Below are positions 65 to 64,000 of a DNA stretch of 64,000 nt, one piece after another. Location of the stretch: the NCBI RefSeq assembly GCF_044704955.1, contig NC_091982.1:111972001-112036000 (forward strand), written 5' to 3'. The DNA is from Pristiophorus japonicus. Its lineage: Eukaryota. The stretch's first letter is position 1; every line of letters starts with the position of its first letter. The notes below the pieces were generated by a model. That model saw only the letters and a program-made list of their open reading frames with translations. It had not been told where the DNA came from and made no database searches. Position numbers and translations under genes: made by a program.

Positions 65-1377
65 ATGATGCTGCCCATGTGTGCTCAGGTTGCGCACCGG
101 AGCCATGAGCCAGGATGTCAGCCCGTGTCACCCAGTAGCCACCCTCAGGTTTGTCATGGTGGCTCAAATGTAGCTGGCACGGCGAACTGTCGCAGAATTA
201 AGGCATCATGACTGCTGCCAGGATACCAGGCATTGACCTGCATGATGCGCTGAGTATGGTCGCACACCAGCTGGACATTGGGCGAGTTCTCCGAATGGAG
301 ATGGGGCACATGGAAAGCGATGTGTGTGCAGTCAATGGCACCATGGGGAAGCCTGCTATCGAGGCAAAACCGTGTGCTTGCTCCACCTGCTTCTTTTTGG
401 CAAGTTAGAATGAAATGTATTTACTTCTCCTTGCATACAGGGCCTCACTCACCCACCATTACACAAGAGTAGACAGCGAACTGGAAGGGGTTACAGATGT
501 CTCCTGTTCTATGCTGGAAGGAGCCCGACACAAAGAAATTCATGGCCACGGTCACCTTTACAGCCACTGGCAATGGCGTCGTCACCCTGGGCTGAGGCTG
601 CGGGCCTGTCTGCAGCAGGAGGCAGAATTCAGTGAGCACAGAGTAAAACAATGACGTCACACACACACTTCCTCGCTGAGGTAGGAGAATTTCTCGCTGA
701 AGATCCTGGGTGGATATAGCCTCTTGCTAAGAGCACTTCCCCCCCTCCACCCGTCCCTCCCCCTCCTCCTCCTGCCTCTTCGAGCAGCTTGTCCTGCTCT
801 GTGTCACCTCTGCTCATTCTTCCTGTCATGCTGCAGGCCAAGGGGAATACAAACTATTGCACTATGTTTGGATCAACTGGGCTGAGCAGAAGACTTGCAA
901 GTCAGGGCCAAGTACTTGATCATGTGCTACACCACTCCATGTAGAATTTAGGCAACTTTAAAGAAGTCTAGAAAGCACCAAACACTTGTACAAACTCCGC
1001 AACAGCCAGTAGAAATCAATCTACAACTAACCTGTAAGTAGGTGGTGAGCCCTTTAAATAGTGCTGGTGGGGGCTTCTTCCTGTTGCTGAACGCATGTTC
1101 AGCTGTGGGAGGTTAAGAGAGGGTGTTAGCTCCAGTGTTGAGGTCGAAAATGGTAGCGCGGCATCAAATCAGCCTTACACACTAATTGTCATCACAATCA
1201 GCATACTCTGCATATTCAGGCGGACACTCCCAGTACCGATGCTAACACCATCACCAAAATGGCATTTGGCCCGGCCCACATCAGAAGTATGTGCGTGTTG
1301 CTCAGACGCAATTTTTGACCTAAAATGGCACCCGTAGTGCCCAGACAACAGGCACTACACGACCAAATTTTTAGCCC
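65..1377 (-). mobile_element. Degenerate PIF/Harbinger DNA transposon (HARBI1-like transposase N-terminal half)
   Basis: Minus-strand peptides PLPVAVKVTVAMNFFVSGSFQHRTGDIC (445-666) and AHGFASIAGFP (198-386), frameshifted; TIR-like end AAATTTTTAGCCC at ~1365-1377. Confidence 0.75.
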
Positions 1378-1710
1378 ATTGTGTTTTACCTGGTATAATG
1401 CATCTGTCATGAAACAGGACATTCTCTTGGGATATGGAGGTTTCGGGGAATATCAAAGTGTCCTACCTCAATATACAAAGTACACATTACCAGAATTAAA
1501 TCGCAATTATACTTTTAAATGCAAGCTCTCAATAAACTGGGAGTTTAAGAAATATTTGTTTTCTTTTAATTTTCTGAAATTCCACCTTTTTTAGTGTGAT
1601 TAAGGGGATGTGTTTAAATGTATGTGAAGTCAAAGAAAAATAATTTTACTAAACTGCATTTGATTTATAATTGTTCAGGACTGTACACAGAGAAAATAAC
1701 ACTTTTGATT

Positions 1711-4700
1711 AGCAAGAGACTCCAAGATGGTATGTTGCCTCCCTGGTGCAAGGGGCAAGGATGTCTCGGAGCGGCTGCAGAGCATTCTGAAGGGGGAGGG
1801 TGAACAGCCATCTGTCGTGGAGCATATGGGTACCAACGATATAGGTAAAAAATGGGATGAGGTCCTATGAGACGAATTTAGAGAGCTAGGAGTTAAATTA
1901 AAAAGTAGGACCTCAAAGATAGTAATCTCAGGATTGCTACCAGTGCCACGTGCTAGTCAGAGTAGGAAAAGCAGGATAGTTCAGATGAATATGTGGCTTG
2001 AGGAATGGTGCAAGAGGGAGGGATTCAAATTACTGGAACATTGGAATCAGTTCTGGGGGAGATGGGACCAGTACAAACCGGACGGTCTGCACCTGGGCAG
2101 GACCGGAACCAATGTCCTCGGTGGAGTGTTTGCTAGTGCTTTTGGGAAGGGTTTAAACTAATATGGCAGAGGGATGGGAATCTATGCAGGGAGGCAGAGG
2201 GAAGTAAAAAGGGGGCAGAAGCAAAAGGTAGGAAGCAGAAAAGTAAGAGTGGAGGGCAGAGAAATTAAGGGCGAAAATCAAAAAGAGCCACATAATTCTA
2301 AAAGGACAGAGTTTTAGGAAAAAAAGCCTGAAGGCTCTGAGTCTCAATGCGAGGAGCATTCGTAATAAGGTGGGTAAATTAACTGCGCAGATAGCTGTTA
2401 ATGGATATGATGTAATTGGGATTACGAAGACATGGCTCCAGGGTAACCAAGGCTGGAAACTCAACATCCAGGGATATTCAATATTCAGGAAGGATAGACA
2501 GTAAAGAAAAGGAGGTGGGGTAGTGTTACTGGTTAAAGAGGAGATTAATGCAATAGTAAGGAAGGACATTAGCCTGGATGATGTGGAATCTATATGGGTA
2601 GAGCTGCGAAACACCAAAGGGCAGAAAACGTTAGTGGGAGTTGTGTACAGATGAGCAAACAGTAGTAGTGAGGTTGGGGATGGCATCAAACAGGAAATTA
2701 GGGATGCATGCAATAAAGGTACAGCAGTTATCATGGGTGACTTTAATCTACATATAGATTGGGCTAACCAAACTGGTAGCAATATGGTGGAGGAGGATTT
2801 CCTGGAGTGTATCAGGGATGGTTTTCTGGACCAATATGTTGAGGAACCAACTAGAGGGCTGGCCATCCTAGACTGGGTGATGTGTAATGAGAAAGGACTA
2901 ATTACCAATCTTGTTGTGCGAGGCCCTTTGGGGAAGAATGACCATAATATGGTAGAATTCTTCATTAAGATGGAGAGTGACACAGTTAATTCAGAGACTA
3001 AGGTCCTGAACTTAAGGAAAGGTAACTTCGATGGTTTGAGGCGTGAATTGGCAAGAATAGTTTGGCGAGTGATACTTAAAGGGTTGACAGTAGATAGGCA
3101 ATGGCAGACATTTAAAGATCACATGGATGAACTACAACAATTGTATATCCCTGTCTGGCATAAAAATAAAACGGGGAAGGTGGCTCAACCATGGCTAACA
3201 AGGGAAATTAGGGATAGTGTTAAATCCAAAGAAGAGGCATATAAATTGGCCAGAAAAAGCCGCAAACCTCAGGAGAAATTTAGAATTCAGCAGAGGAGGT
3301 CTAAGGATTTAATTTGGAGGGGGAAAATAGAGTATGAGAGTAAGCTTGCAGGGAGCATAAAAACTGACTGCAAAAGCTTCTATAGAAAAGTGAAGAGAAA
3401 AAGATTAGTGAAGACTAATGTAGGTCCCTTGCAGTCAGAATCAGGTGAATTCATAATGGGGAACAAGGAAATGGCAGACCAATTGAACAAATACTTTGGT
3501 TCTGTCTTCACTAAGGAAGACACGAATAACCTCACGAAAATACTAGGGGACCGAGGGTCTAGCGAGAAGGAGGAACTGAGGGAACTGAGGGAAATACTTA
3601 TTAGTCAGGAAATGGTGCTAGGGAAATTGATGGGATTGAAGGCCGATAAAACCCCAGGGCCTAATAGTTGGCATCCCAGAGTACTTAAGGAAGTGGCCCT
3701 AGAAATAGTGGATGCACTGGTGATCATTTTCCAACAGTCTATCGATCTGGATCAGTTCCTATGGATTGGAGGGTAGCTAATGTAACCCCACTTTTTAAAA
3801 AAGGAACGAGAGAAAACACGGAATTATAGACCGGTTAGCCTGACATCGGTAATGGGGAAAATGCTGGATGTAATAGCAGCGCATTTGGAAAGCAGTGACA
3901 GGATCGGTCCAAGTCAGCATGGATTTATGAAAGGGAAACCGTGCTTGACAAATCTTCTAGAATTTTTTGAGGATGTAACGAGTAGAGTGGATAAGGGCGA
4001 ATCAGTGGATGTGGTATATATGGACTTTCAAAAGGCTTTTGACAACGTCCCACACAAGAGATTAGTGTGCAAAATTAAGGCATATGGTATTGAGGGTAAT
4101 GTATTGACATGGATAGAGAACTAGTTGGCAGACAGGAAGCAAAGAGTGGGAATAAATGGGTCCTTTTCAGAATGGCAGGCAGTGACTAGTGGGGTACCGC
4201 AAGGTTCAGTGCTGGGACCCCAGATATTTATCATATATATTAATGATTTAGACGAAAGAATTGAATGTAATATCTCCAAGTTTGCAGATGACACTAAGCT
4301 AGGTGGCAGTGTGAGCTGTGAGGAGGATGCTAAGAGGCTGCAGGGTGACTTGGACAGGTTAGGTGAGTGGGCAAATGCATGGCATGGCAGATGCAATGTA
4401 ATGCGGATAATTGTGAGGTTATCCACTTTAGTGGCAAAAACAGGAAGGCAGATTATTATCTGAATGGTGACAGATTAGTAAAAGGAGTGGTGCAACGTGA
4501 CCTGGGTATCATGGTACATCAGTCATTGAAAGTAGGCATGAGGGTACAACAGGCAGTAAAGAAAGCAAATGGAATGTTGGCATTCATAGCGAGAGGATTT
4601 GATTATAGCAACAGGGAGGTCTTACTGCAGTTGTACAGGGCCTTGGTGAGACCACACCTTGAGTATTGTGTGCAGTTTTGGTCTCCTAATCTAAAGAAGG

Positions 4701-5212
4701 ACATTCTTGCTATTGACTGAGTGCAACGAAGGTTTACCAGACTGATTCCCAGGATGGCAGGACCGACGTATGAAGAAAGACTGGATCGACTAGGCTTATA
4801 TTCACTGGAATTTAGAAGAATGAGAGGGGATCTCATAGAGGCATATAAAATTCTGATGGGATTGGACAGGTTAGATGCAGGAAGAATGTTCCCGATGTTG
4901 GGGAAGTCCAGTACTAGGGGACATAGTCTAAGGATAAGGGGTAAGCCATCTAGGACCGAGATGAGGAGAAACTTTTTTAGAGAACTGTAAACCTGTGGAA
5001 TTCTCTATCACAGAAAGTTGTTGAGTCCAGTTCATTGGATATATTCAAAAGGGGGTTAGATGTGGCCCTTATGGCTAAAGGGATCAGTGGGTATGGAAAG
5101 AAGGCAGGAGCGGGGTACTGAAGTTGCATGATCAGCCATGATCATATTGAATGGTGGTGCAGGTTTGAAGGGCCGAATGGCCTACTCCTGCACCATTTTC
5201 TATGTTTCTATG
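1711..5212 (+). mobile_element. CR1 LINE, 5'-truncated: ORF1 esterase-like C-terminus plus disrupted ORF2 (APE + RT)
   Basis: LPVPRASQSR..DGLHL (ORF1); MGDFNLHIDW (APE); [33 protein letters not shown] (RT); (TTTCTATG)n tail; stops and frameshifts. Confidence 0.95.
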
Positions 5213-8629: not shown

Positions 8630-8830
8630 ACCAGCCTTTCACCCGTGAGGCCTGGGTTCAAATCCATCTTGTCCTGGTGGGATCAATGTCTGCTCTCTCC
8701 GCTGGTTGTAAAACTCGTCTGTGGCTCAGTTTATGTATGATGGCTACCATCAGCAGTCAGGGGAGACATTTGTCCCCTCGGGCTGTGGTGAAGTTGAACC
8801 CAAGTTCTAGGAATGGCAACGCACTGTGTT
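8630..8830 (+). mobile_element. Old tRNA-derived SINE remnant (LF-SINE-like head)
   Basis: AGCCTTTCACCCGTGAGGCCTGGGTTCAAATCC contains a B box; family assignment is from memory and weak. Confidence 0.35.
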
Positions 8831-9095
8831 TGTCTGCCTCCATTAATGTTAAATATGTAAATCTAGATCTCTCATTTGAATGTAATTTTCATTTCAGTAT
8901 ACAGCATACAGTACTCCTATTGTGCATTTCTGGGTTTAAATCACAAGGTTGAGCACTTTTTTTCTGGAATGTGGCCATCACTGGCAAGGCCAGCATTTAT
9001 TGCCCATCCCTAATTGTCCTTGAGAAGGTAGTGGTGAACCGCCTTTTTCAACAGCTGCAGTCCCAGTGGCGAAGGTATTCCCACAGAGCTGTTAA

Positions 9096-9447
9096 ATGCA
9101 GGAAGAATGTTCTCGATGTTGGGGAAGTCCAGAACCAGGGGACACAGTCTAAGGATAAGGGGTAAGCCATTTAGGACTGAGATGAGGAGAAACTTCTTCA
9201 TTCAGAGAGTTGTTAACCTGTGGAATTCCGTACCGCAGAGAGTTGTTAATGCCAGTTTGTTGGATATATTCAAGAGGGAGTTAGATTTGGCCCTTACGGC
9301 TAAAGGGATCAAGGGGTATGGAGAGAAAGCAGGAAAGGGGTACTGAGGTGAATGATCAGCCATGATCTTATTGAATGGTGGTGCAGGCTCGAAGGGCCGA
9401 ATGGCCTACTCCTGCACCTATTTTCTATGTTTCTATGTTTCTATGTT
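9096..9447 (+). mobile_element. CR1 3' fragment nested in family B LINE
   Basis: LGKSRTRGHSLRIRGKPFRTEMRRNFF; (TTTCTATG)3 tail; TGTTA repeated at both junctions; host sequence resumes at ~9448. Confidence 0.9.
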
Positions 9448-10267
9448 AGAGAGGGAGATCCAGGATATTGACTCAGCGACGATGAAGGAACGACGATATA
9501 ATTCCAAGTCAGGATGGTGCGTAACATGGTGAGGAACTTGCAGGTGATGGTGTTCCCATTCGCCTGCTACCCTTATCTTTCTAGGTGGTAGAGGTCGGGG
9601 GTTTTGGAGGTGCTGTTGAAGAAGCCTTGGCGAGTTGCTGCATTGCATCTTGTAAATGGAACACAGTGCAGACACGGTACGCCAGTGGTGGAGGGAGTGA
9701 ATGTTTAAGGTGGTGGATGGGGCACCGATTAAGCGGGTTGCTTTGTCCTGGATGGTGTTGAGCTTCTTGAGTGTTATAGGAGCTGGAGCTGCACTCATCC
9801 AGGCAACCAGAGAGTATTCCCTCATACTCCTGAGTTGCGCCTCACCGATTGTGGAAAGGCTTTGAGGAGTCAGGAGGGGAGACACTCGTCGCAGACTACC
9901 CAGCCTCTGACCTGCTCTTGTGGCCACATTAATTATGTGGCTGATCCAGTTATGTTTCTGGTCAATGGTGATCCCCAAGATGTTGATGGTGGGGGATTCA
10001 GCAATGGTAATGCCGTTGTGGAGATAGTCATTGCCTGGCACTTGTGTGGCGCGAATATTAATTGAAACTTATCAGCCCAAGCCTGAATGTCGTCCAGGTC
10101 TTGCTGCATGCAGGCATGGGCTGCTCCATTATCTGAGGAGTTGCAAATGGAACTGAACACTGTGCACTCATCAGTGAACTTCCCCACTTTTGACCTTACG
10201 ATGGAGGGAAGGTCATTGATGAAGCAGCTGAAGATGGTTGGGCCTAGGACACTGCCCTGAAGAACTC

Positions 10268-11604
10268 AGTCCATTATTAAGGAAGCAGTAGCGGGACATT
10301 TGGAAAACTATGATTCAATCAAGCAGAGTCAGCATGGTTTATGAAAGGGAAAGCATGTTTGACAAATTTACTGGAGCACTCTGAAGATGTAACAAGCAGG
10401 GTGGATAAGGGGGAACCAGTGGATGTGGTGTATTTGGATTTCCAGAAGGCATTCAATAAGGTACCACATAAGAGGTTACTGCACAAATAAAAGCTCACAG
10501 GGTTGGGGGTAATATATTAGCATGGATAGAGGATTGGCTAACTAGCAGAAAAGAGAGTGTCGGGATAAATGGGTCATTATCCGGTTGCCAAACAGTGACT
10601 AGTGGGGTGTCGCAGGGATCAGTGCTGGGTCCTCAAATATTTACAATCTATATTAATGACTTGGGTGAAGGGACTGAGTGTAATGTAGCCATGTTTGCTG
10701 ATGATACAAAGCTGGGTGGGAACCAAAAGTGAGGACACAGAAAATCTGCAAAGGGATATAGACAGGCTAAGTGAGTGGGCAAACATTTGGCAGATGGAGT
10801 ATAATGTGGGAAAATGTGAGGTTACCCACTTTGGCAGTAAAAATAGAAGAGGAAATTATAATTTAAATGGAGAAAAATTGCAAAGTGCTGGAATACAGAG
10901 GGACCTGGGGGTCCTTGTGCATGAAACACAAAAAGTGAGTATGCAGGTACAGCAAGTAATCAGCAAGGCAAATGGAATGCTGGCCTTTATTGCAAGGGGG
11001 ATAGAGTATAAAAACAGAGAAGTCCTGCTACAACTGTACAGGGTATTGGTGATGCCACACCTGGCGTACTGCATACAGTTTTAGTCTCCGTATTTAAGGA
11101 AGGAGAAACTTGCATTGGAGGCTGTTCAGAGATTAGGTTCACTAGGTTGATTCTGGAGATGAGGGGGTTGACTTATGAGGATAGATTGAATAAGCTGGGC
11201 CTATACACATTGGAGTTCAGAAGAATGAGAGGTGATCTTATTGAAATTTAGAAGTTAATGAGGGGGCTCGAAAAGGTGGATGCAGAGAGGATATTTCCAC
11301 CCATAGAGGAAACTAAAACTCGGGGACATAAGGGGCCGCCTATTTAAAATTGACATGAGGAGAAATTTCTTCCTTCAGAGAGTTGTAAATCTATGGAATT
11401 CTCTGCCCCAGATAGCTGTGGAGGCTAGGTCATTGAATATATTTAAGGTGGAGATAATCAGATTTTTGAGCGATAAGGGAGTAAAGGGTTATGGGGAGCG
11501 AGCAGGGAAGTGGAGCTGAGTCCATGATCAGATCAACCATGATCTTATTGAATGGCAGAGCAGGCTCAAGGGGCCAAATGGCCTACTCCTGCTCTTATTT
11601 CTTA
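10268..11604 (+). mobile_element. CR1 RT/3' fragment (subfamily with TTCTTAT tail)
   Basis: Decayed RT (QHG, DFQKAF, FADD regions); 3' UTR GGGAAGTGGAGCTGAGTCCATGATCAG. Confidence 0.9.
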
Positions 11605-12522
11605 TATCTCGAAGTTTGCAGATGACACTAAGCTGGGTGGCGTTGTGAGCTGTGAGGAGGACGCTAAGAGGCTGCAGGTGACTTGGACAGGTTAGGTGAG
11701 TGGGCAAATGCATGGCAGATGCAGTATAATGTGGATAAATGTGAGGTTATCCACTTTGGTGGCAAAAACAGGAAGAATATTATCTGAATGGTGACAGATT
11801 AGGTAAAGGGGAGGTGCATTGGGACCTGGGTGTCATGGTACATCAGTCATTGAAGTTTGGCATACAGGTACAGCAGGCGGTGAAGAAGGCAAATGGCATG
11901 TTGGCCTTCATAGCTAGAGGATTTGAGTATAGGAGCAGGGAGGTCTTACTGCAGTTGCACAGAGCTTTGGTGAGGCCACACCTGGAATATTGTGTTCAGT
12001 TTTGGTCTCCAAATCTGAGGAAGGACGGTCTTGCTATTGAGGGAGTACAGCGAAGGTTCACCAGATTGATTCCCGGGATGGCCGGACTGACATATGAGGA
12101 GAGACTGGATCAACTGGGCTTGTATCCACTGGAGAGGATCTCATAGAAACATATAAAATTCTGACAGGATTGGACAGGTTAGAGGCAGGAAGAATGTTCC
12201 TGTTGCTGGGGGGTTCCAGAACCAGAGGTCACAGTCTAAGAATAAGGGGTAAGCCATTTAGGACTGAGATGAGGAGAAACTTCTTCACTCAGAGAGTGGT
12301 TAACCTGTGGAATTCTCTATCGCAGAAAGTTGTTGAGGCCAGTTTGTTAGATATATTTAAAAGGGAGGTAGATGTAGCCCTTATGGCCAAAGGGATCAAG
12401 GGGTATGGAGAGAAAGCAGGAAAGGGGTACTGAGGTTGAATGATCAGCCATGATCTTATTGAATGGTGGTGCAGGCTCGAGGGGTCGAATGGCCTGCTCC
12501 TGCACCTATTTTCTATGTTTCT
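11605..12522 (+). mobile_element. CR1 RT/3' fragment (subfamily with TTTCTATG tail), tandem with the previous copy
   Basis: Starts at AAGTTTGCAGATGACACTAAG (KFADDTK); VRPHLEYCVQFWSP; AACTC repeated at 10263-10267 and 12523-12527 around the pair. Confidence 0.9.
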
Positions 12523-14689
12523 AACTCCTGCAGCGATGTCCTGGGGCTTGGATGATTGACCTCCAACAACCACAACCATCTTCCTTTGTGCCAGGTATGT
12601 CTCCTGATTCTCATCAACTTCAATATTAATAGGGCTCCTTGATGCCACACTCGGTCAAATGCTGCCTTGATGTCAAGGGCAGTCACTCTCACCTAACCGC
12701 TGAATTCAGCTCTTTTATCCATCTTTGGACCAAGGCTGTAATGAGGTCTGGAGCTGAGTGGTCTTGGCAGAACCCAAACTTAGCATCGGTGAGCAGGTTG
12801 TTGGTGAGTAAGTGCCGCTTAATAGTACTATTGACGCCATCTTCCATCACATTGCTGATGATTGAGAGTAGACTGATGGGGCAGTAATTAGCCGGATTGG
12901 ATTTGTCCTGCTTTTTGTGGACAGGACATACCTGGGCAGTTTTTCACATTGTCGGGTATATACCAGTGTTGTAGCTGTACTGGTACAGCTTGGTTAGAGG
13001 CGCATAAGTCTTCAGCACAAGTCTTCAGCACAACAGTCGGGATGTTGTTGGGGCCCATAGCCTTTGCTATATCCAATGTGCTCAGCAGTTTCTTGATATC
13101 ATGTGGAGTGAATCGAATTGGCTGAAGACTAGCTTCTGTGATGGTGGGGACCTCAGGAGGAGGCCAATGTGGATCATCCACTCAGCACTTCTGGCTGAAG
13201 CTGGTTACAAATGCTTCAGCCTTGTCTTTTGCACTTGTATGCTGGGCTCTGCCATCATTGAGGATGGGAATATTCGTGGACCCTCCTCCTCCCGTTAGTT
13301 GTTTAATGGCCCGCCACCATTCACCTGGATGTGGCAGGACTGCAGAGCTGTGAAGTGATCCGTTGCTTGAGGGATCGCTTAGCTCTGTCTATAACGTTCT
13401 GCTTCCGCTGCTTAGCATGCACATAGTCCTGTGTTGCAGCTTCCCCAGTTTGGCACCTCATTTTTATATATGCCAGGTGTTGTTCCTGGCATGCTCTTCT
13501 GCACTCCTTATTCAACCAAGGTTGCTCCCCTGGCTTGATGGTAATGGTAGAGTGAGGGATATGCCGGGCCATGAGGTTACAGATTGTGGTGGAATACAAT
13601 TCTGCTGCTGCTGATGATCCACAGCACCTCACGGATGCCCAGTTTTGAGCTGCTAGATCTGTTCTGAATCAATCCCATTTGGCACGGTGGTAGAGCCACA
13701 CAACACGATGGCGGGTGCCCTCAGTGTGAAGACAGGACTTCGTCTCTACAGTGACTGTGCCATGGCCACTTCTGTCGATACTGTCATTGACAGATGCATC
13801 CGTGATGGGTAGATTGTTGAGGACAAGATCAAGTAGTTTTTTTCCCTCGTGTTGGTTCTCTCACCACGAGTCACAGACCCAGTCTGGCAGCTGTGTCCTT
13901 CAGGACTCAGCCAGTTTGGTCACATGGTGCTACAAATCCACTCTTGGTGATGAGCATTGAAGTCCCCCACCCAGAGTACATTCTGTGCCCTTGCTACCCT
14001 CAATGCTTCTTCCAAGTGGTGTTCAACATGGAGGAGGACTGATTCACCAGCTGTGGGTGGTAGGTGGTTTCCTTGCCCATGCTTGACCTGAAGCCATGAG
14101 ACTCCGTGGGATTCAGAGTCAATGTTGCGGACTCCCATGGCCACTCCCTCCTGACTGTATACCACTGTACTGGTACCTTGGGTGGGTCTGTCCAGTCGGT
14201 GGGACAAGACATACCCAGGGATGTTGCTGGAGGAGTCTGGGACATTTGCTGAAGGGTATCATTCTATTCATATGACTATGTCAGGCTGTTGCTTGACTAG
14301 GCTGTGTGACAGCTCTCCCAATTTTGCACAAGTCCCCAGATGTTAGTGGGGAGGACTTTGCAGAGTCGACTGGGCTGTGTGTGTCATGTCTGAAGGTTGA
14401 TGTCAGGTGGTCCGTCCGGTTTTATTCTTATTATTGTTTTCAGTAGCAGTTTGTTACAACTGAATGACTTGCTAGGCCATTTCAGAGGGCAGTTGAGAAT
14501 CAACCACGTTGCTGTGGGTCTGAAGTCACAGGTAAGCCAGACCAGGGAAGGACGACAGATTTCCTTCCCTAAAGGACATTAGCGAACCAGATGGGTATTT
14601 ACGACAATCCGATAGTTTCATGGTCACTATTATGATACCAGCTTTTTCTTCCAGATTTATTTAATTAACTGAATTTTAATTCCCCAGAT

Positions 14690-14780
14690 TCTGTGGTGGG
14701 ATTTGAACTCACGTCTCTGTATCATTAGTCCAGACCGCTGGATTACTTACTAGTCCAGTAACATAACCACTATGTTACCA
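14690..14780 (-). promoter_or_regulatory. tRNA-derived internal Pol III promoter at the 5' end of family B LINE
   Basis: Minus strand: A-box-like TAACATAGTGG; anticodon-arm-like CTGGA-CTAGTAA(GTAA)-TCCAG; B box GAGTTCAAATCC. Confidence 0.75.
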
Positions 14781-14802
14781 TTGCTGCATTTGTTTAAATA
14801 TT

Positions 14803-15504
14803 AGGCTCAATTTTGGCCAGGAGTTGCTCCATTTTTTTTGGAGTAACTTGATTTTTCTGGTGTATCTTAAAAATCCTCATTTTGCACATTCAATTTGCAT
14901 CAGTGTAAGTGAGTTAGTTACGACTTTTTTAGATTCATTTTTTTTCTCAATAGTTACTCCAAATCTACTTAGGCCAGCATATGTGGCCACTTCAGAAAAC
15001 CCTTGTGGAGAGTTAAGAAATCAGCGCAGGTAGATACATCGGAGGCCACTCGGCCTGGGATAGGTGTGAGATGACAACGCACCGGGAGACCACTCGGCCA
15101 GGGCTAGGGGCGGCAGCGATTGAACTGCTGACATCGGAGCACACACAGCGGCTGCAGGAAGCAAAATCACCGGAAAGGCTGCAACAGGCTGCAGCAAGCA
15201 AACGGCAAAACACAAGCAGCTACGTATCCCTTTAAAAATGGGCAATTGCCAAATTTCGGCGCCACTGCGCATGCACGGACATCGCGACCTGACTCCAATG
15301 CGCACATGCAGACGTCCTGGCACTGTTTTCAGTGCAGGACGCTGGCTCCGCCCCCGACTCAACTGGCCACACTGCGCAATGACTGGGGAGAGGCCAGACA
15401 GCGGCCAAAGTGGGGAGGAAATTTTTCGGCGCACTTCTGAACCGAGAAAATTGGCGCATCTCCGGTAAGTGCGCCAAAAAAGGGGGTGGGACAAAATTGA
15501 GCAC
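14803..15504. mobile_element. Harbinger-type MITE
   Basis: TIRs AGGCTCAATTTT / AAAATTGAGCAC; first ~150 nt homologous to 30550-30690; 3-bp flanks ATT/AAT. Confidence 0.7.
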
Positions 15505-15714
15505 AATGTAGTTACAGCAAAATAATTGCTCTGATGGACGTCTAACAGCTGCTAGTCTATTACAGCTATCAGTGTTACGTTAAAATATCAACATTTTCAA
15601 ATGGAACCATTTTTCTGTGGATAATAAAACTAATGTTCCTAGCAAGACCTCTGTTACTTTCTTGTGGAGATGGTACAAGGAGGGAGAGTCAGTCTGTGGG
15701 ATAATTTAGGGCAC

Positions 15715-16170
15715 AGCACTCAAGAAGCTTGGCTCCATCCAGGACAAAGCAGCCCGCTTGATCGTCAGCCCATCCACCACCTTCAACATTCACTCCCTCC
15801 ATTAACACAGCACAGTGGCTACAGTGTGTACTGCCCACAGGATGCACTGCAGCAACTTGCCAAGACTTCTTCGGCAGCATCTCCCAAACCTGCGACCTCT
15901 ATCACCTAAAAGACAAGGGCAGCAGGTGCATAGGAACACCATCCCCTCCAAGTTCCCCTTCAAATCACACACCATCCTGACTTGGAAATATATCGGCCGT
16001 TCCTTCATCGTCGCTGGGTCAAAATCCTGGAACTGCCTCCCTAACAGCACTGTGGGAATACCTTCACCACAGGGACTGCAATGGCTCACCACCATCTTCT
16101 CGAGGGCAATTGGGATGAGTAATAAATGCCTGTCTTGCTAGCGACGTCCATATCCCAAGACTGAATAAAA
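15715..16170 (+). mobile_element. Family B LINE 3' fragment
   Basis: HCSNLPRLLRQHLPNLRPL; ends GGCAATTGGGATGAGTAATAAATGCC. Confidence 0.85.
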
Positions 16171-23945: not shown

Positions 23946-24622
23946 TTTTTAGAACACATTCTCAGAATGTGGGCTTCCCTGGCAAGGCCGGCATTTATTG
24001 CCCATCCTTAGTTGCTCTTAACTGCTCTTACTAGGCATCTTCAAAGGGCAGTTAAAAGTCAACCACGTTGGTGTGAGACTGGAGTCACATATAGGCCAGA
24101 CTGGTTAAGGACGGCAGGTTTACTTCCCTAAAGGGCATTAATGAACTAGTTGAGTTTTAATGACAATCCGGTAGTTTCATGGTCACTTTTACTGATACCA
24201 GCTTTTTATTTCCAATTTCTTTTACAACTGGCTTCAAATTCTCAAACTGACATGTTGTGATTTGAACTCCCTTTCTCTGGATTATTAGTCCGGTAATGTA
24301 GCCTTTAGCTGGACTGGTTCTTGACTGGGGCAAAGATGGCATCTTACAGAAGGTAAATGGATTAGCAGATAACACATGATCCACGGGATCTTTTCGACAC
24401 ATCTCGATTGCCTGAGGGGATCGGAGAGGAATTTCCCACAGTTTTTTTCTCCCTTGTTGGCCCTGGGTTTTGCCTCTCCCAGGAGATTATACGCCTGTGA
24501 TGTGAGGTAGGAAGTGTCGAGTCACGATGCTCTGGCCATCATGAGTGTGGGGCAGGCTTGATGGATCAGCTGGTCTTTTTATGCCTGTCATTTTCATATG
24601 CTCGTATAACCATTGCACTATT
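23946..24622 (-). mobile_element. tRNA-derived SINE = family B LINE 5' ~320 nt + family B 3' tail (head interrupted by a CR1 3' piece)
   Basis: 24020-24300 aligns by eye with 14460-14760; 23946-24019 aligns with 8957-9022; B box GAGTTCAAATC on the minus strand at ~24259-24269. Confidence 0.85.
24303..24604 (+). mobile_element. CR1 3'-UTR fragment inserted in the SINE head
   Basis: CGATTGCCTGAGGGGATCGGAGAGGAATTT...GGGTTTTGCCTCTCCCAGGAGAT is a reverse-complement match to ~50210-50325; CR1-like terminal hairpin. Confidence 0.65.
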
Positions 24623-26649: not shown

Positions 26650-27654
26650 CAGAAAACCAGCGCAATGCTGAGCGCAGTTTGCATCCGATTTGCCAATTAC
26701 ACCCAAAGCCGAAATTCTACCCCATGAACTCCCGTACCTCGTAAACCCACGACCTCTACCATCTAGAAGGACAAGGGCAGCAGGCGCATGGGAACACCAT
26801 CACCTCTACATTCCCCTCCAAGTTACACACCATCCTGACTTGGCAGAATATCGCCGTTCCTTCATCGTTGTTGGGTCAAAATCTTGGAATTCAATACCTA
26901 ACAGCATTATGGGAGTGCCTTCACCACCCGGACTGCAGCGGTTCAAGAAGGCGACTCACCACCACCTTCTCAAGGGCAATTAGGGATGGGCAATAAATGC
27001 TGGCCTTTCCAGCGACACCCACAACCCAGCAATGAACAAAAAACAAACCAAAGTATACTGGAGCAGCTTCCCAAAATGATTCAGTTGATTCTTGACAAAC
27101 ACACACTAGATTGCCAACTTGATGTGCATTGTTGGAGCAGCCCACTATGGAAGTCATGTGCTTGAGAGGTTTACTCTGAGCCAAAGCACTTCTGCAAGCT
27201 TTCTGGAGGAGTTTTGCTACTTCTTGCTTGGCTTGCTGATGGGAGAATTGCAAAATAATGAGAGCCTCTATTTATGAAAAGCCAAAGCTGAGGCACTCCA
27301 ACTAACTTAATCGATTCACACCTCTTTCTGGCCAATCGTAGGGCAGTTGTGAACATGGTTCAGGAAGGATGCTGAGGTCTAAACCAAAAGGGAAACCCAA
27401 AGTAACTCAAATGAAACTCTTTCATGTTAGTTTGTGAATATGGAAACTAACGATATACTGCCAAGTCAGGATGGTGTGTAACTTGGAGGGGAATGTAGAG
27501 GTGATGGTGTTCCCATGCGCCTGCTGCCCTTGTCCTTCTAGATGGTAGAGGTCGTGGGTTTACGAGGTACGGGAGTTCATGGGGTAGAATTTCGGCTTTG
27601 GGTGTAATTGGCAATTCGGATGCAAACTGCGCTCAGCATTGCGCTGGTTTTCTG
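26650..27654. repeat. 204-bp inverted repeat (arms 26650-26853 and 27451-27654, 597-bp spacer)
   Basis: Arms are reverse complements with 2 mismatches by eye. Confidence 0.95.
26735..27045 (+). mobile_element. Family B LINE 3' fragment
   Basis: NPRPLPSRRTRAAGAWEHHH; ends GGCAATTAGGGATGGGCAATAAATGCTGGCC plus A-rich tail. Confidence 0.85.
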
Positions 27655-40117: not shown

Positions 40118-41080
40118 TTACCGGCTCGTGGTGCTTTCCCTGCTCAAGTGCCGGCTCCGCACAAGGAAGCTTCCTGTCCGTGATAGCTGCTCTCTGAATT
40201 CGGAGGTGACAAAATAGTAGATGATCGGGTCCAAGCAAGCGTTCATGCTGGCTATGCACAGTGTGAATGAATGCAGGATCTGGATAGTCATCCGCACAGA
40301 GCAGTCCGTAATGATGTTCAGGCGTCTCAGCTGGTTCAGCGGGAAGAGTATGTGGTAGGGAGCAAAGCACACCAGGAACACGAGCGCACACATCAAGACC
40401 AGCTTCAGAGCCCGCCTTCCGCCTTGGTCGTTGTGCAGCGTACACTTCTGCTGCAATGACTGCATCGTTTTCCAGGTACAGGTGATGATGATGATGATGG
40501 GCCCCACAAAGCCCAGGAGCTCTGCCGCCGTCAGCATTAATACAGAGGATCCTAGGTTGACTTGCTTCATGGGTAGGTCAGCAAAACAGAGTGTGCTGTT
40601 GAAGGAGTCAGTGTTCCGCATGACGGGGAATGGCAGGCATATGACGATGACGACCACCCATCCAATAATGCTCAGGCACACATCGTACCTGCGTCTCCAG
40701 CTGTTGTATCTGAAGGGGTAGATGAGGAAAATACAGCGCTGGATGCTGATGCAGACTAAAAATAAGATGCTCGCGTACATGTTGACGAACTTTAGGTAGA
40801 AACAGAACAAGCACATGAATTTTCCAAACGGCCAGGTATGGGTTATATAGTAAAAGATCCTCAGCGGCAAGGACAACACGTGTGCCAAGTCAGCAAAGGC
40901 CAGGTTTATCATGAATATCACCGCCTTCTTCTCCCTTTTGATGTTCCCAAATAAAACCCACAAGGCCACGCTATTGCCGAAGAAGCCAGGAATGACGATT
41001 ATTCCGTAGACAATCGCGTACAGGCGCAGCTCGCCATCCCAGTGTTCCTCTGCGCACGGAACGGATGCATTGACTGACAT
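40118..41080 (-). CDS. P2RY10: P2Y purinoceptor 10-like class A GPCR (lysophosphatidylserine receptor), 320 aa
   Basis: Intact 7TM ORF. KAVIFMINLAFADLAHVLSLPLRIFYY, CFYLKFVNMYASI, CISIQRC (QRC in place of DRY), WRRRYDV, CLPFP, CFADL, CFAPYHI and LDPIIYYFVTSEFREQLSR closely match my recollection of mammalian P2RY10. Confidence 0.92.
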   Translation of the reverse strand: MSVNASVPCAEEHWDGELRLYAIVYGIIVIPGFFGNSVALWVLFGNIKREKKAVIFMINLAFADLAHVLSLPLRIFYYITHTWPFGKFMCLFCFYLKFVNMYASILFLVCISIQRCIFLIYPFRYNSWRRRYDVCLSIIGWVVVIVICLPFPVMRNTDSFNSTLCFADLPMKQVNLGSSVLMLTAAELLGFVGPIIIIITCTWKTMQSLQQKCTLHNDQGGRRALKLVLMCALVFLVCFAPYHILFPLNQLRRLNIITDCSVRMTIQILHSFTLCIASMNACLDPIIYYFVTSEFREQLSRTGSFLVRSRHLSRESTTSR

Positions 41081-41141
41081 TTTCCCCGAGCGTCAGGTTC
41101 TTTTTTTTTTGAGAGAAGTCTTTTACCAACTGCACGAGTTA

Positions 41142-46354: not shown

Positions 46355-47990
46355 GGACGGAATTTCCCTTACTGAGTCAGGTCGGGTGCGTGCGGGCTGT
46401 GTAGCAGGTCGTTACAGTGATGTATCGATCAGCCCATTTCTCAGAGCGGCTTTAGTGTAATGGCCCCTATTAAGGCAGACATGTGCATTTCCCGGCCCTA
46501 TTAGTTGGTGCGCGTCTGATGATGTCTAATTTCCAGCGATGACATCGGATTTAACGGTTCATGCAGGAGTGTGGAGGGAGGATTGGAGAGGAATGTCTTG
46601 TGGAGAAATAGAAACATGACTTCCCAAAGTCCGAGGGCTGCACCCAGGTTTTCAGAAGACTCCCTACATATTCTTGTGGAGAGAGTCAGAGCATGCAGGG
46701 AGGTCCCAGGGCAGAAGAGACCTCCCCAAGAGACAAAAAGAGCCTGGCTCCAAATTGCAGAGGAGGTGAAGAGCAGGGATGTGGTGAGGCGGACCTGGGT
46801 GCAGTGCAGGAAGATCTTCAATGATCTGATGAGATCAGGAAAGGTGAGTGCAAAGCCACACTCACCCTCATCCTGCTGTGCCTCTCATCACATCCCCATC
46901 ACTCTGCCTTCCAAAGCCTGCTCCTGTACATCCTTACTCACACCAACCTACCTTGCAATTCCACCCATCCCTCTCTCTCTACGTCCATACTCACACCCCC
47001 ATCTAACTAACCACCCCTCACACTCACCCTCATCCGAATGCAATCATACCAACTAACACCACAGGAAGAGACCATTTGGCATTGGCACCACACTCCCTCA
47101 CAGTCACCCTCCACAAATGTAACCCACACATTCCTTATGCTCATGCTACTACTCTCACTCAAATTTGTCTTCTTTCCCTCCTTGCAGAAGAGAGCGCACA
47201 GCAGCAGGGAATGGGAGTGAACCAGGGGTGTCCTGCCATTCTTCAGTACTATAACTGCAGCAGAGGAGGAGGCCCTGGAGGTGTCAGGGGCTGTGGAGCA
47301 GCTGGCAGTGGAAGAGGGAGCGAGGGGGACATCTCAGCAACCAGATGACAGAATTACATCTCATACAGCCACAGGACATACAGCAGTCACTCATAGGGGC
47401 ACTGACATCAGCAGCCAGTGAATGTTCATCATGTGCATAATGGTATAATTAACCATTCTTAACAGAACATTTCAAAATCATTTCTTTACTTTCCCATGGG
47501 TTCATCAAGAACCCCCCCACCACTCCCCCTCTCCCACTGTCCAGCTGGAGAAGGAAGACGACTCCTCAGAGGAGCCTCCAGCCTCTGAGGGTGCAGCGTC
47601 GGCAGACCCAAGCATGGTGGGTCCTGTGAGAGAGAGAATAATGCTGTCACCTGGTGTCTCACACTTCACAAGTGAACAAGAACAGATGATGTTGACAGGG
47701 ACAGCGGAGAGTGCAGAACGCTCCAAGCTCTGCTCAACTACATGCAGGATCACAATGAGCAAGTCTGCCCCTGCACAGTCTGAGGGAGCAGATTTTGGCG
47801 GGGCCATCAGAGGCTCCAAAACTCAGAGGACGTCCGCCAAAAATGTTTACGCTGTTGCAGCAGGGAAATGAGCAGCCTGCCTCTAGCTCTGCTGAAGCCA
47901 CAGGGGTTGCACCTCGTAGAAGCATGAGTAAGAGAAAGATGACACAGAAGTAGGTGCACACGGTAAGCACATAGGCGTTTAAAAAATGTT
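46355..47990 (+). mobile_element. Harbinger element fragment with spliced Myb/SANT-like DNA-binding gene (degenerate)
   Basis: RAAPRFSEDSLHILVERV..KRAWLQIAEEV..RRTWVQCRKIFNDL (46620-46843); donor AAG|GTGAGT at ~46843; acceptor TTTCCCTCCTTGCAG at ~47188. Confidence 0.7.
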
Positions 47991-49008: not shown

Positions 49009-49312
49009 TGATGAAGCAGCTGAAGATGGATGGGCCTAGGACACTGCCCTGAGGAACACCTGCAGCAATATCCTGGGGCTGAAATGATCTGGAGCACAAG
49101 TCTTCAGGACTACAGCTGGGGTGTTGACGGGACCCATAGCCTTTGTTGTATCCATTGCGCTCAGCTGTTTTTCGATATTACGGGGAGTGAATCTAATTGG
49201 TTGAAGACTGGCATCTGTGATGGTGGTGACCTCAGGAGGAGACTGAGATGGATCATCCACTCAGCACTTTTGGCTGAGGATGGTTGGAAACTCTTCAACC
49301 TTGTCTTTTGCT
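49009..49312 (-). mobile_element. Family B LINE internal fragments
   Basis: DDPSQSPPEVTTITDASLQPIRFTP..KAMGP; homologous to 10218-10267 and 13015-13230. Confidence 0.8.
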
Positions 49313-63480: not shown

Positions 63481-63699
63481 TTAAATATTATAATGGGGAG
63501 ACAATGCCTCCATTTTAACAGTGATTCTATTTTTAACTACAGTCCGCCGGCTTTCTTCAGCCCTGGGAAAACCGGCAGCAGAAAGGAGGCAGGAAAGGCG
63601 GCCGATGAGGTAAGCGTCTTACAGCACTGCTCATGGGCCAGGAGAAGTGGGCGTGTTTCCTACAGGCCCAACAAGTATACCTGTAAACTCCGCCTGCTG

Positions 63700-63915
63700 C
63701 CTCCCCCCACCACCCACCCCGTGATCAGACCCCTAACCACACCTTCCCCCCCCCCATGATCAGACCCCTAACCACACACCCGCACCCACCCCCCCGTGAT
63801 CAGACCCCTAACCGCACCCCCGCACCCACCCCTCCCGTGATCAGACCCCTAACCGCACCCCCGCACCCACCCCTCCCGTGATCAGACCCCTAACCACACC
63901 CCCCCCCCACCCCCC
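63700..63915 (+). repeat. C-rich minisatellite, ~5 copies of a ~40 bp unit
   Basis: Unit CCCGTGATCAGACCCCTAACCGCACCCCCGCACCCACCCCT. Confidence 0.9.
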
Positions 63916-64000
63916 ACTACACCTATCCACTCTCAGCTCCGCTGCAGCCTTGTGCTGCAGAGTTCCCGCCCAACAGGCAGCTAAGCTGGCCTGTCAATAG

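Follow-up and report, generated by a model that had tools for sequence, protein, structure and literature searches.

The element and its copies in the genome

The window analyzed in this study is a stretch of 64,000 nucleotides (nt) of Pristiophorus japonicus (NC_091982.1, positions 111,972,001 to 112,036,000 of the forward strand), from a genome of 5.9 Gb. This study was concerned with a long interspersed element (LINE) in the window that carries a tRNA-like head at its 5' end, and with the polymerase that may transcribe its family. The element is a decayed copy of an abundant protein-coding LINE. It is one full-length 3.3-kb copy on the minus strand, split by two CR1 insertions into three segments that correspond to consensus positions 1-2318, 2314-3165 and 3161-3294, and it lies 9% from the family consensus. 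The 5' part is 88% identical to the consensus and collinear with genomic copies, and the middle part is matched by Pfam RVT_1 (E 4e-10). The window also holds fragments of the same family and a related short interspersed element (SINE). The features are as follows.

12523..14779, minus strand: LINE 5' part, with head, 5' untranslated region (UTR), endonuclease and first part of the reverse transcriptase (RT); consensus 1-2318
14685..14779, minus strand: tRNA-like head, with a D-arm-like region, two tandem anticodon-arm-like hairpins and a T-arm-like region
14767..14777, minus strand: A box, consensus TAGCATAGTGG, one substitution in the window copy
14700..14708, minus strand: B box GTTCAAATC, 54 nt past the A box in the consensus
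14460..14684, minus strand: remaining 5' UTR, common to the LINE and the SINE of this genome
12523..14453, minus strand: beginning of the long single frame, broken in the window copy
About 14344, minus strand: endonuclease motif, with no in-frame ATG ahead of it
10268..12522, plus strand: CR1 fragments inserted in the LINE copy, 5 nt of LINE duplicated at the junctions
9444..10267, minus strand: LINE middle part, with the C-terminal half of the RT and the C-terminal region; consensus 2314-3165
9096..9443, plus strand: CR1 3' fragment inserted in the LINE copy, 4-5 nt duplicated
8957..9095, minus strand: LINE 3' end; stop codon 9010-9012, AATAAA 8996-9001 within a predicted stem-loop, A7 tail 8957-8963
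15713..16168, plus strand: 5'-truncated copy of the same LINE family; consensus 2832-3301
26736..27039, plus strand: 5'-truncated copy of the same LINE family; consensus 2998-3301
49009..49311, minus strand: internal LINE fragment; consensus 1584-1807 joined to 2285-2364
23967..24291, minus strand: SINE copy, head and body (82% to consensus 45-309) followed by the LINE tail (3234-3286)

Genomic copies were collected by four anchors: the head (39 loci), the RT (29), the 3' end (29) and the endonuclease (28 new loci). The pooled consensus was built from 125 copies and is 3301 nt long. Likely segmental duplicates among the loci (L064/L068; L461/L465/L467) were removed only for the shared-variant test. 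The family is abundant: in 147 loci that had been retrieved for other families, it accounted for 7359 of 579,957 nt. As in other LINEs, 5'-truncated copies have intact 3' ends and a simple tail, and lack long terminal repeats (LTRs). No target-site duplications were evident by eye in 17 old copies having both ends. A search for an older sister family, started from a 71%-identical copy, gave only the same LINE family, and subfamily phasing gave mosaic variants and no clean subfamily consensuses. Contigs of four public sequencing runs (four organisms) cover 30 of 30 bins of 12523-14790; strand, ends and level are not readable from these contigs. The runs listed as containing the sequence included no RNA run.

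Head, leader and 3' end

The tRNA-like head is an integral part of the LINE. The A box occupies consensus positions 3-13 and the B box positions 68-76, with two tandem anticodon-arm-like hairpins in the head. All three window segments were present in order in 21 of the 39 head-anchored loci. Conversely, 26 of the 28 new endonuclease-anchored loci had 5' UTR sequence upstream, the other two being truncated near the start of the open reading frame (ORF), and 15 of the 28 reach position 4 or lower. Both boxes match the consensus and were intact in 18 of the 44 copies covering them. The LINE (35 copies) and the SINE (12 copies) have an identical start, about 8 nt ahead of the A box. The Rfam tRNA model scored below its gathering score of 29 throughout, with 15.9 bits for the window copy and 21.5-22.2 bits in 2 of 10 other loci, and ARAGORN found no tRNA gene in the window.

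Only about 320 nt lie ahead of the long frame, and the longest other frame there has 99 codons. There is therefore no ORF1, and the canonical CR1/L2 arrangement, an ORF1 upstream of the endonuclease-RT frame, is absent. The 5' UTR holds four AWTAAA hexamers. One copy was folded over its 5' region, with an unremarkable result (z -1.46). At the 3' end, a predicted stem-loop with AATAAA (consensus 3254, about 45 nt from the end) is followed by a variable T run and then by A's. A run of at least four T's (T>=4) was found at 20 of 75 LINE ends and 12 of 39 short ends, or 32 of 114 in all. With SINE2 elements the LINE shares a tRNA-derived head with A and B boxes and the lack of an internal RNA polymerase III (Pol III) terminator; it is neither short nor non-coding. 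Elsewhere in the genome, in loci outside the LINE family (L031-L488), runs of at least five A's were preceded by T>=4 in 141 of 3286 cases and followed by T>=4 in 8 of 3286.

Coding frame and purifying selection

The consensus has a single frame of 973 codons from stop to stop, beginning at position 324, which encodes the endonuclease and then the RT. Pfam Exo_endo_phos and RVT_1 were both matched in copies. This combination in one frame is that of an autonomous APE-type LINE. The first in-frame Met is residue 287 of the consensus frame, and no in-frame leader ATG recurred in more than 2 of 40 copies.

The ORF of the source elements was under purifying selection. Among 122 copies, non-CpG variants shared by at least 20% of copies comprised 26 synonymous, 12 replacement and 0 stop changes, as compared with 521, 1704 and 83, respectively, among single-copy changes. 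This comparison gave a ratio of 0.13 (P 3e-9), with 0.17 in the CR1 control, and the values for the LINE ranged from 0.13 to 0.27. Since the shared variants are mostly synonymous, the source elements needed their protein.

Deficit of Pol III terminators on the sense strand

Sequences described as working Pol III terminators are TTTT, TCTTT, TATTT and TGTTT (PMC8466645), the last three written here as TVTTT. A preliminary description of this DNA had proposed that the sense strand of the LINE is free of such T runs, and its counts by eye were borne out. None of the three segments contains AAAA on the plus strand (0, 0 and 0). Nine AAA runs (0+4+5) stand where about ten sense TTT had been estimated, and 16 antisense T>=4 runs (2+2+12) bear out the statement that these are common. 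No sense T>=4 run occurs in any of the fragments at 15715-16170, 26735-27045 and 49009-49312, and the CR1 at 1711-5212, credited with ten or more, has 11. The LINE segments overlap with the two longest stretches of the window that contain no AAAA (12358-14868; 8709-10303). The window copy adds little beyond the consensus, because at the family rate about 30% of 3.2-kb copies would be expected to have none.

The preliminary description had let its case depend on a consensus free of internal T>=4 runs. The pooled consensus contains none, and it contains no TVTTT and 7 TTT. A second consensus, from the 28 endonuclease-anchored copies, has one TGTTT, located at a CpG decay site, and a third, from the RT- and 3'-anchored copies, has none. 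The individual copies hold 82 T>=4 runs in 215,853 nt (0.38/kb), as compared with 2.48/kb in 29 CR1 copies and 0.96/kb in 30 RTE copies. At any one site, a T>=4 run occurs in at most 9% of the copies covering it.

Several null models were used to judge these counts. For TTTT alone, the absence was significant against base shuffles (P 0.015) and not significant against dinucleotide (P 0.14) or codon shuffles (P 0.10). When T>=4 and TVTTT were counted together, 0 terminators were observed against 7.2 expected from base shuffles (P 0.002) and 4.1 from dinucleotide shuffles (P 0.015). Thus, the claim of a depletion beyond composition holds against base and dinucleotide shuffles when T clusters are counted, and fails against matched nulls for the TTTT count alone. 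Back-translation of the protein with third-position usage of RTE, of the relative L241 described below or of the LINE itself gave 3.6-5.6 expected terminators (P 0.001-0.011). The deficit extends to runs of at least three T's (T>=3; 7 against 20.6 expected) and to interrupted clusters of four T's in five positions (2 against 12.5).

Other families of the same genome lack this depletion, as the preliminary description had required. Observed and expected terminators were 12 and 13.1 in CR1, 6 and 4.6 in RTE, whose consensus has frame breaks, and 17 and 15.9 in L2, for which the partial consensus is only 1760 nt long. The corresponding T>=3 runs were 30 and 32.6 in CR1, 13 and 14.8 in RTE, and 29 and 31.8 in the partial L2. 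Sense A runs in the tRNA-headed LINE were at expectation (22 against 23.3), and pyrimidine tracts, splice-like motifs and poly(A) signals were not depleted. Among the four families compared, the deficit of clusters is found only in the tRNA-headed LINE, and there it concerns T only and the sense strand only. A suggested comparison of Phe codons gave a borderline result only (TTT/TTC 3/15, P 0.049).

The synonymous codon shuffle was rejected as a discriminating null because CR1 falls below it as well (9 against 17.7, P 0.002), likely through CpG context.

Comparison with foreign LINEs

Pattern scans gave 148 loci with LINEs (80 in metagenome and 68 in genome contigs, 0 in viral contigs), from which 90 foreign ORFs of at least 550 aa were taken. 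Most of these 90 ORFs are AT-rich and some are near duplicates. Against this panel the tRNA-headed LINE is an extreme outlier: its observed/expected ratio for T>=3 runs is 0.29, whereas the lowest foreign value is 0.68 and the median 1.11. The fewest terminators in any of the 90 ORFs was 5. Many GTDB and metagenome contigs hold animal-type LINEs.

The sole sister-clade locus among the 148 is L241, a public contig of 3099 nt from a metagenome-assembled genome, with an intact ORF of 950 codons. Only 39 nt lie upstream of the ATG, so the contig is too short at its 5' end to reveal a head. Its presence in a bacterial bin is likely eukaryotic contamination. The L241 ORF has 5 terminators in all against 6.7 expected, and runs of T5 and T7 lie past its stop.

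Predicted proteins related to the tRNA-headed LINE were found in whale shark (69%) and, over a short piece, in horn shark (73%); a homolog search with a C-terminal piece as query gave one match. Over 354 aa, the protein is 40-46% identical to single-ORF endonuclease-RT LINEs of invertebrates (P0123, P0002-P0067), the named ones being from Branchiostoma, Nematostella and Pinctada. These resemble it in length (about 935-985 aa), domain order and a short basic N-terminus. However, in most of them the endonuclease motif is preceded by a Met at a distance of 9-35 residues, and such a Met is absent from the tRNA-headed LINE. Its RT is 26% identical to the CR1 of this genome and has short 27-40% matches to its L2. 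The label CR1-Zenon, suggested by PMC11481361 and a whale shark preprint, is a lead and not a confirmed assignment.

A SINE with the same head and tail

Of the 30 loci found with the window SINE, 26 have the LINE tail a short distance past the LINE head. The SINE consists of LINE positions 1 to about 320 joined to 3231-3301. The common junction lies at a CTCA shared by both sites and links about position 320 to 3231, and others are 294/3200, 301/3212 and 333/3164. That several junctions exist suggests that the LINE underwent internal deletion repeatedly, and the SINE likely arose more than once by internal deletion of LINE RNA. Two groups of SINEs (L399-L428) have body and tail in common, but their heads diverge over the first 43 nt. 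In one group, identity to the LINE head is 89-93% and the first base coincides with that of the LINE; in the other, identity to the LINE is about 82% from position 43 on. The older group leaves an alternative, namely that the LINE may first have acquired its head from a pre-existing SINE. The 5' UTR behind the head, which is the SINE body, has a putative likeness to a Deu domain. One supplement file of PMC4824008, the part of that source compared, gave no match.

Relation to described systems

Among described systems, SacSINE1 and its tail partner come nearest. SacSINE1, SacSINE1-CM and LmeSINE1 are SINEs with a tRNA head and a Deu domain from sharks, chimaera and coelacanth, and the tail partner of the SacSINE1 type is given as L2-2_CM or a 'CR1-4_DR-like' LINE (PMC5499810, PMC3747384, PMC2746220). 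Like this pair, the present elements combine a tRNA head, a conserved body and a tail shared by SINE and LINE in a cartilaginous fish. Unlike it, the LINE here has the whole head and body, whereas for SacSINE1 and L2-2_CM the parts of the description consulted give tail homology only (PMC5499810).

Three other systems share some traits. First, the mammalian T+ SINEs B2, Dip and Ves have T runs ahead of short A tails, and they resemble the LINE in a Pol III-type head and in a 3' end with AATAAA, a T run of variable length and a short A tail (PMC8466645). However, they are short non-coding RNAs, whereas the element here is 3.3 kb long with a selected ORF, and its tail T run is only about twice background. 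Secondly, in the RTE and Vingi clades, bipartite non-autonomous LINEs are likewise short elements made of the 5' and 3' ends of a LINE by internal deletion (PMC5786205). There the LINE is taken as transcribed by RNA polymerase II (Pol II) and a tRNA head was added later to the SINE, whereas here the head is already on the LINE. Third, the TRIMp3 elements Cassandra, Helenus and Ajax also show Pol III promoters outside classic SINEs (PMC10886601), but they are non-autonomous, LTR-type and at most about 1.3 kb long. No Pol III-headed autonomous LINE was described in the literature searched, which lay outside Repbase and subscription journals. Repbase may already hold the sequence.

Proposed transcription and its alternatives

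We consider it probable that the tRNA-headed LINE is an autonomous element and that Pol III, acting from the A/B-box head, transcribed its source copies over their whole length. Initiation would lie a few bases ahead of the A box, and Pol III would cross 3.3 kb free of terminators until it meets a T run at the 3' end or beyond. As in mammalian T+ SINEs, the terminal AATAAA would direct polyadenylation of this RNA. Its translation would need neither a cap nor an AUG, and target-primed reverse transcription would copy the RNA back into the genome. End-to-end transcription by Pol III would explain why the sense strand is free of T-run terminators. Pol III transcripts retrotranspose with L1 ORF2p alone (PMC2666806), which fits the absence of ORF1 here. 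Selection against Pol III terminators, as proposed in the preliminary description, is the explanation that fits best, although it is not an established fact.

Several points weigh against this proposal. First, the case for Pol III is drawn from sequence features, and the T-run analysis concerns one lineage examined after the fact. Secondly, the statistics are not uniform: the TTTT count by itself is not significant against matched nulls, C runs are also mildly low against dinucleotide shuffles (51 against 60.6, P 0.016), and CR1 is likewise below codon shuffles. CR1 also shows the same trend in the avoidance test of T-run-creating variants in source lineages. The AT-richness and near duplicates of the foreign panel belong here too. 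Third, the T run at the 3' end is only about twice background (15/64 against 141/1206, P 0.01), T-before-A junctions are frequent across this genome, and the T run may have arisen after insertion. Fourth, the uncapped RNA would have to be translated despite several upstream ATGs and without an in-frame start ATG. Lastly, the copies lie about 4-12% from the consensus, so the family is old in the genome, and no copy collected is intact.

An unlikely alternative is an ordinary Pol II LINE that captured a SINE as its 5' UTR, or that uses a Pol II promoter inside it. The lack of T runs would then be a by-product of a C-rich, Phe-poor and T-poor sense strand, plus chance. The P values of 0.10-0.14 for TTTT would accord with this, as would a protein with 18 Phe, as low as in sister-clade proteins (18-43), and the GC-rich relative L241, which has one TTTT only in its ORF and in this respect also weighs against Pol III. 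LINEs are, moreover, described as Pol II elements in PMC10886601. However, RTE is poorer in T than the tRNA-headed LINE (17% against 20%) and yet has 3 T>=4 runs and no depletion, and L241 has terminators near expectation in its ORF and T runs past its stop. The four AWTAAA hexamers in the 5' UTR also argue against Pol II, as do A and B boxes that match the consensus and a 5' end that is the same as that of the SINE.

It is distinctly improbable that two RNAs are involved, a terminator-free Pol III template that is copied and a separate capped Pol II RNA, for example from host read-through, that supplies the protein. Such a division would account for the T-run deficit without translation of an uncapped RNA, and it suits the absence of an in-frame ATG ahead of the endonuclease motif. 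However, a host transcript would face the same upstream ATGs and missing start codon, and the strong purifying selection would be explained most easily if the copied RNA supplies its own protein.

Another cause of T-cluster avoidance unrelated to the polymerase, for instance U tracts at which the RT pauses or slips, U-rich signals for RNA decay, or defence by small RNAs, is very improbable. The deficit does reach TT, TNT and TTT (lag-1 and lag-2 ratios 0.75 and 0.79), which are shorter than termination needs. But the other families of this genome that were compared, CR1, RTE and L2, have no such deficit, and ATTTA and A/T-rich tracts are near expectation. Finally, a long non-autonomous SINE dragging a relic ORF and mobilized by another LINE, as the SINE-like head and tail and the lack of a start ATG could suggest, is hardly tenable, being largely refuted by a consensus frame open over 973 codons and by shared variants that are strongly synonymous, with no stops at frequencies of at least 20%.

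Other features of the window

A 204-nt inverted repeat (26650-26853 and 27451-27654; 99% identity, 597 nt between) includes part of a LINE fragment and looks like a recent inverted duplication. A single-exon frame of 324 aa at 40118-41092 (minus strand) presumably encodes a G-protein-coupled receptor of P2Y/lysophospholipid type. The frame at 46523-47056 (plus strand) we take to resemble a Myb/SANT-like DNA-binding protein of Harbinger-type transposons. A C-rich tandem repeat with a unit of about 40 nt lies at 63673-63949 (6 copies).

Significance

The fullest form of the proposal is a coding retrotransposon made wholly by Pol III, with an uncapped 3.3-kb RNA, polyadenylation like that of T+ SINEs and non-AUG translation, which is the parent of Deu-type SINEs of cartilaginous fishes by internal deletion. 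We hold it tentatively, as an account that is possible but a little likelier to fail in some part than to stand whole. In that form, the SINE body would be the 5' UTR of a LINE, possibly a translation-initiation element. An abundant LINE transcribed from a tRNA-type promoter would break the usual division described in PMC10886601 and PMC5786205 between LINEs as Pol II mRNAs and SINEs as short Pol III RNAs, and it would provide a natural example of a long Pol III transcript that is translated. The function of conserved SINE bodies would also become testable, because here the body lies exactly between the promoter and the start of the selected ORF.

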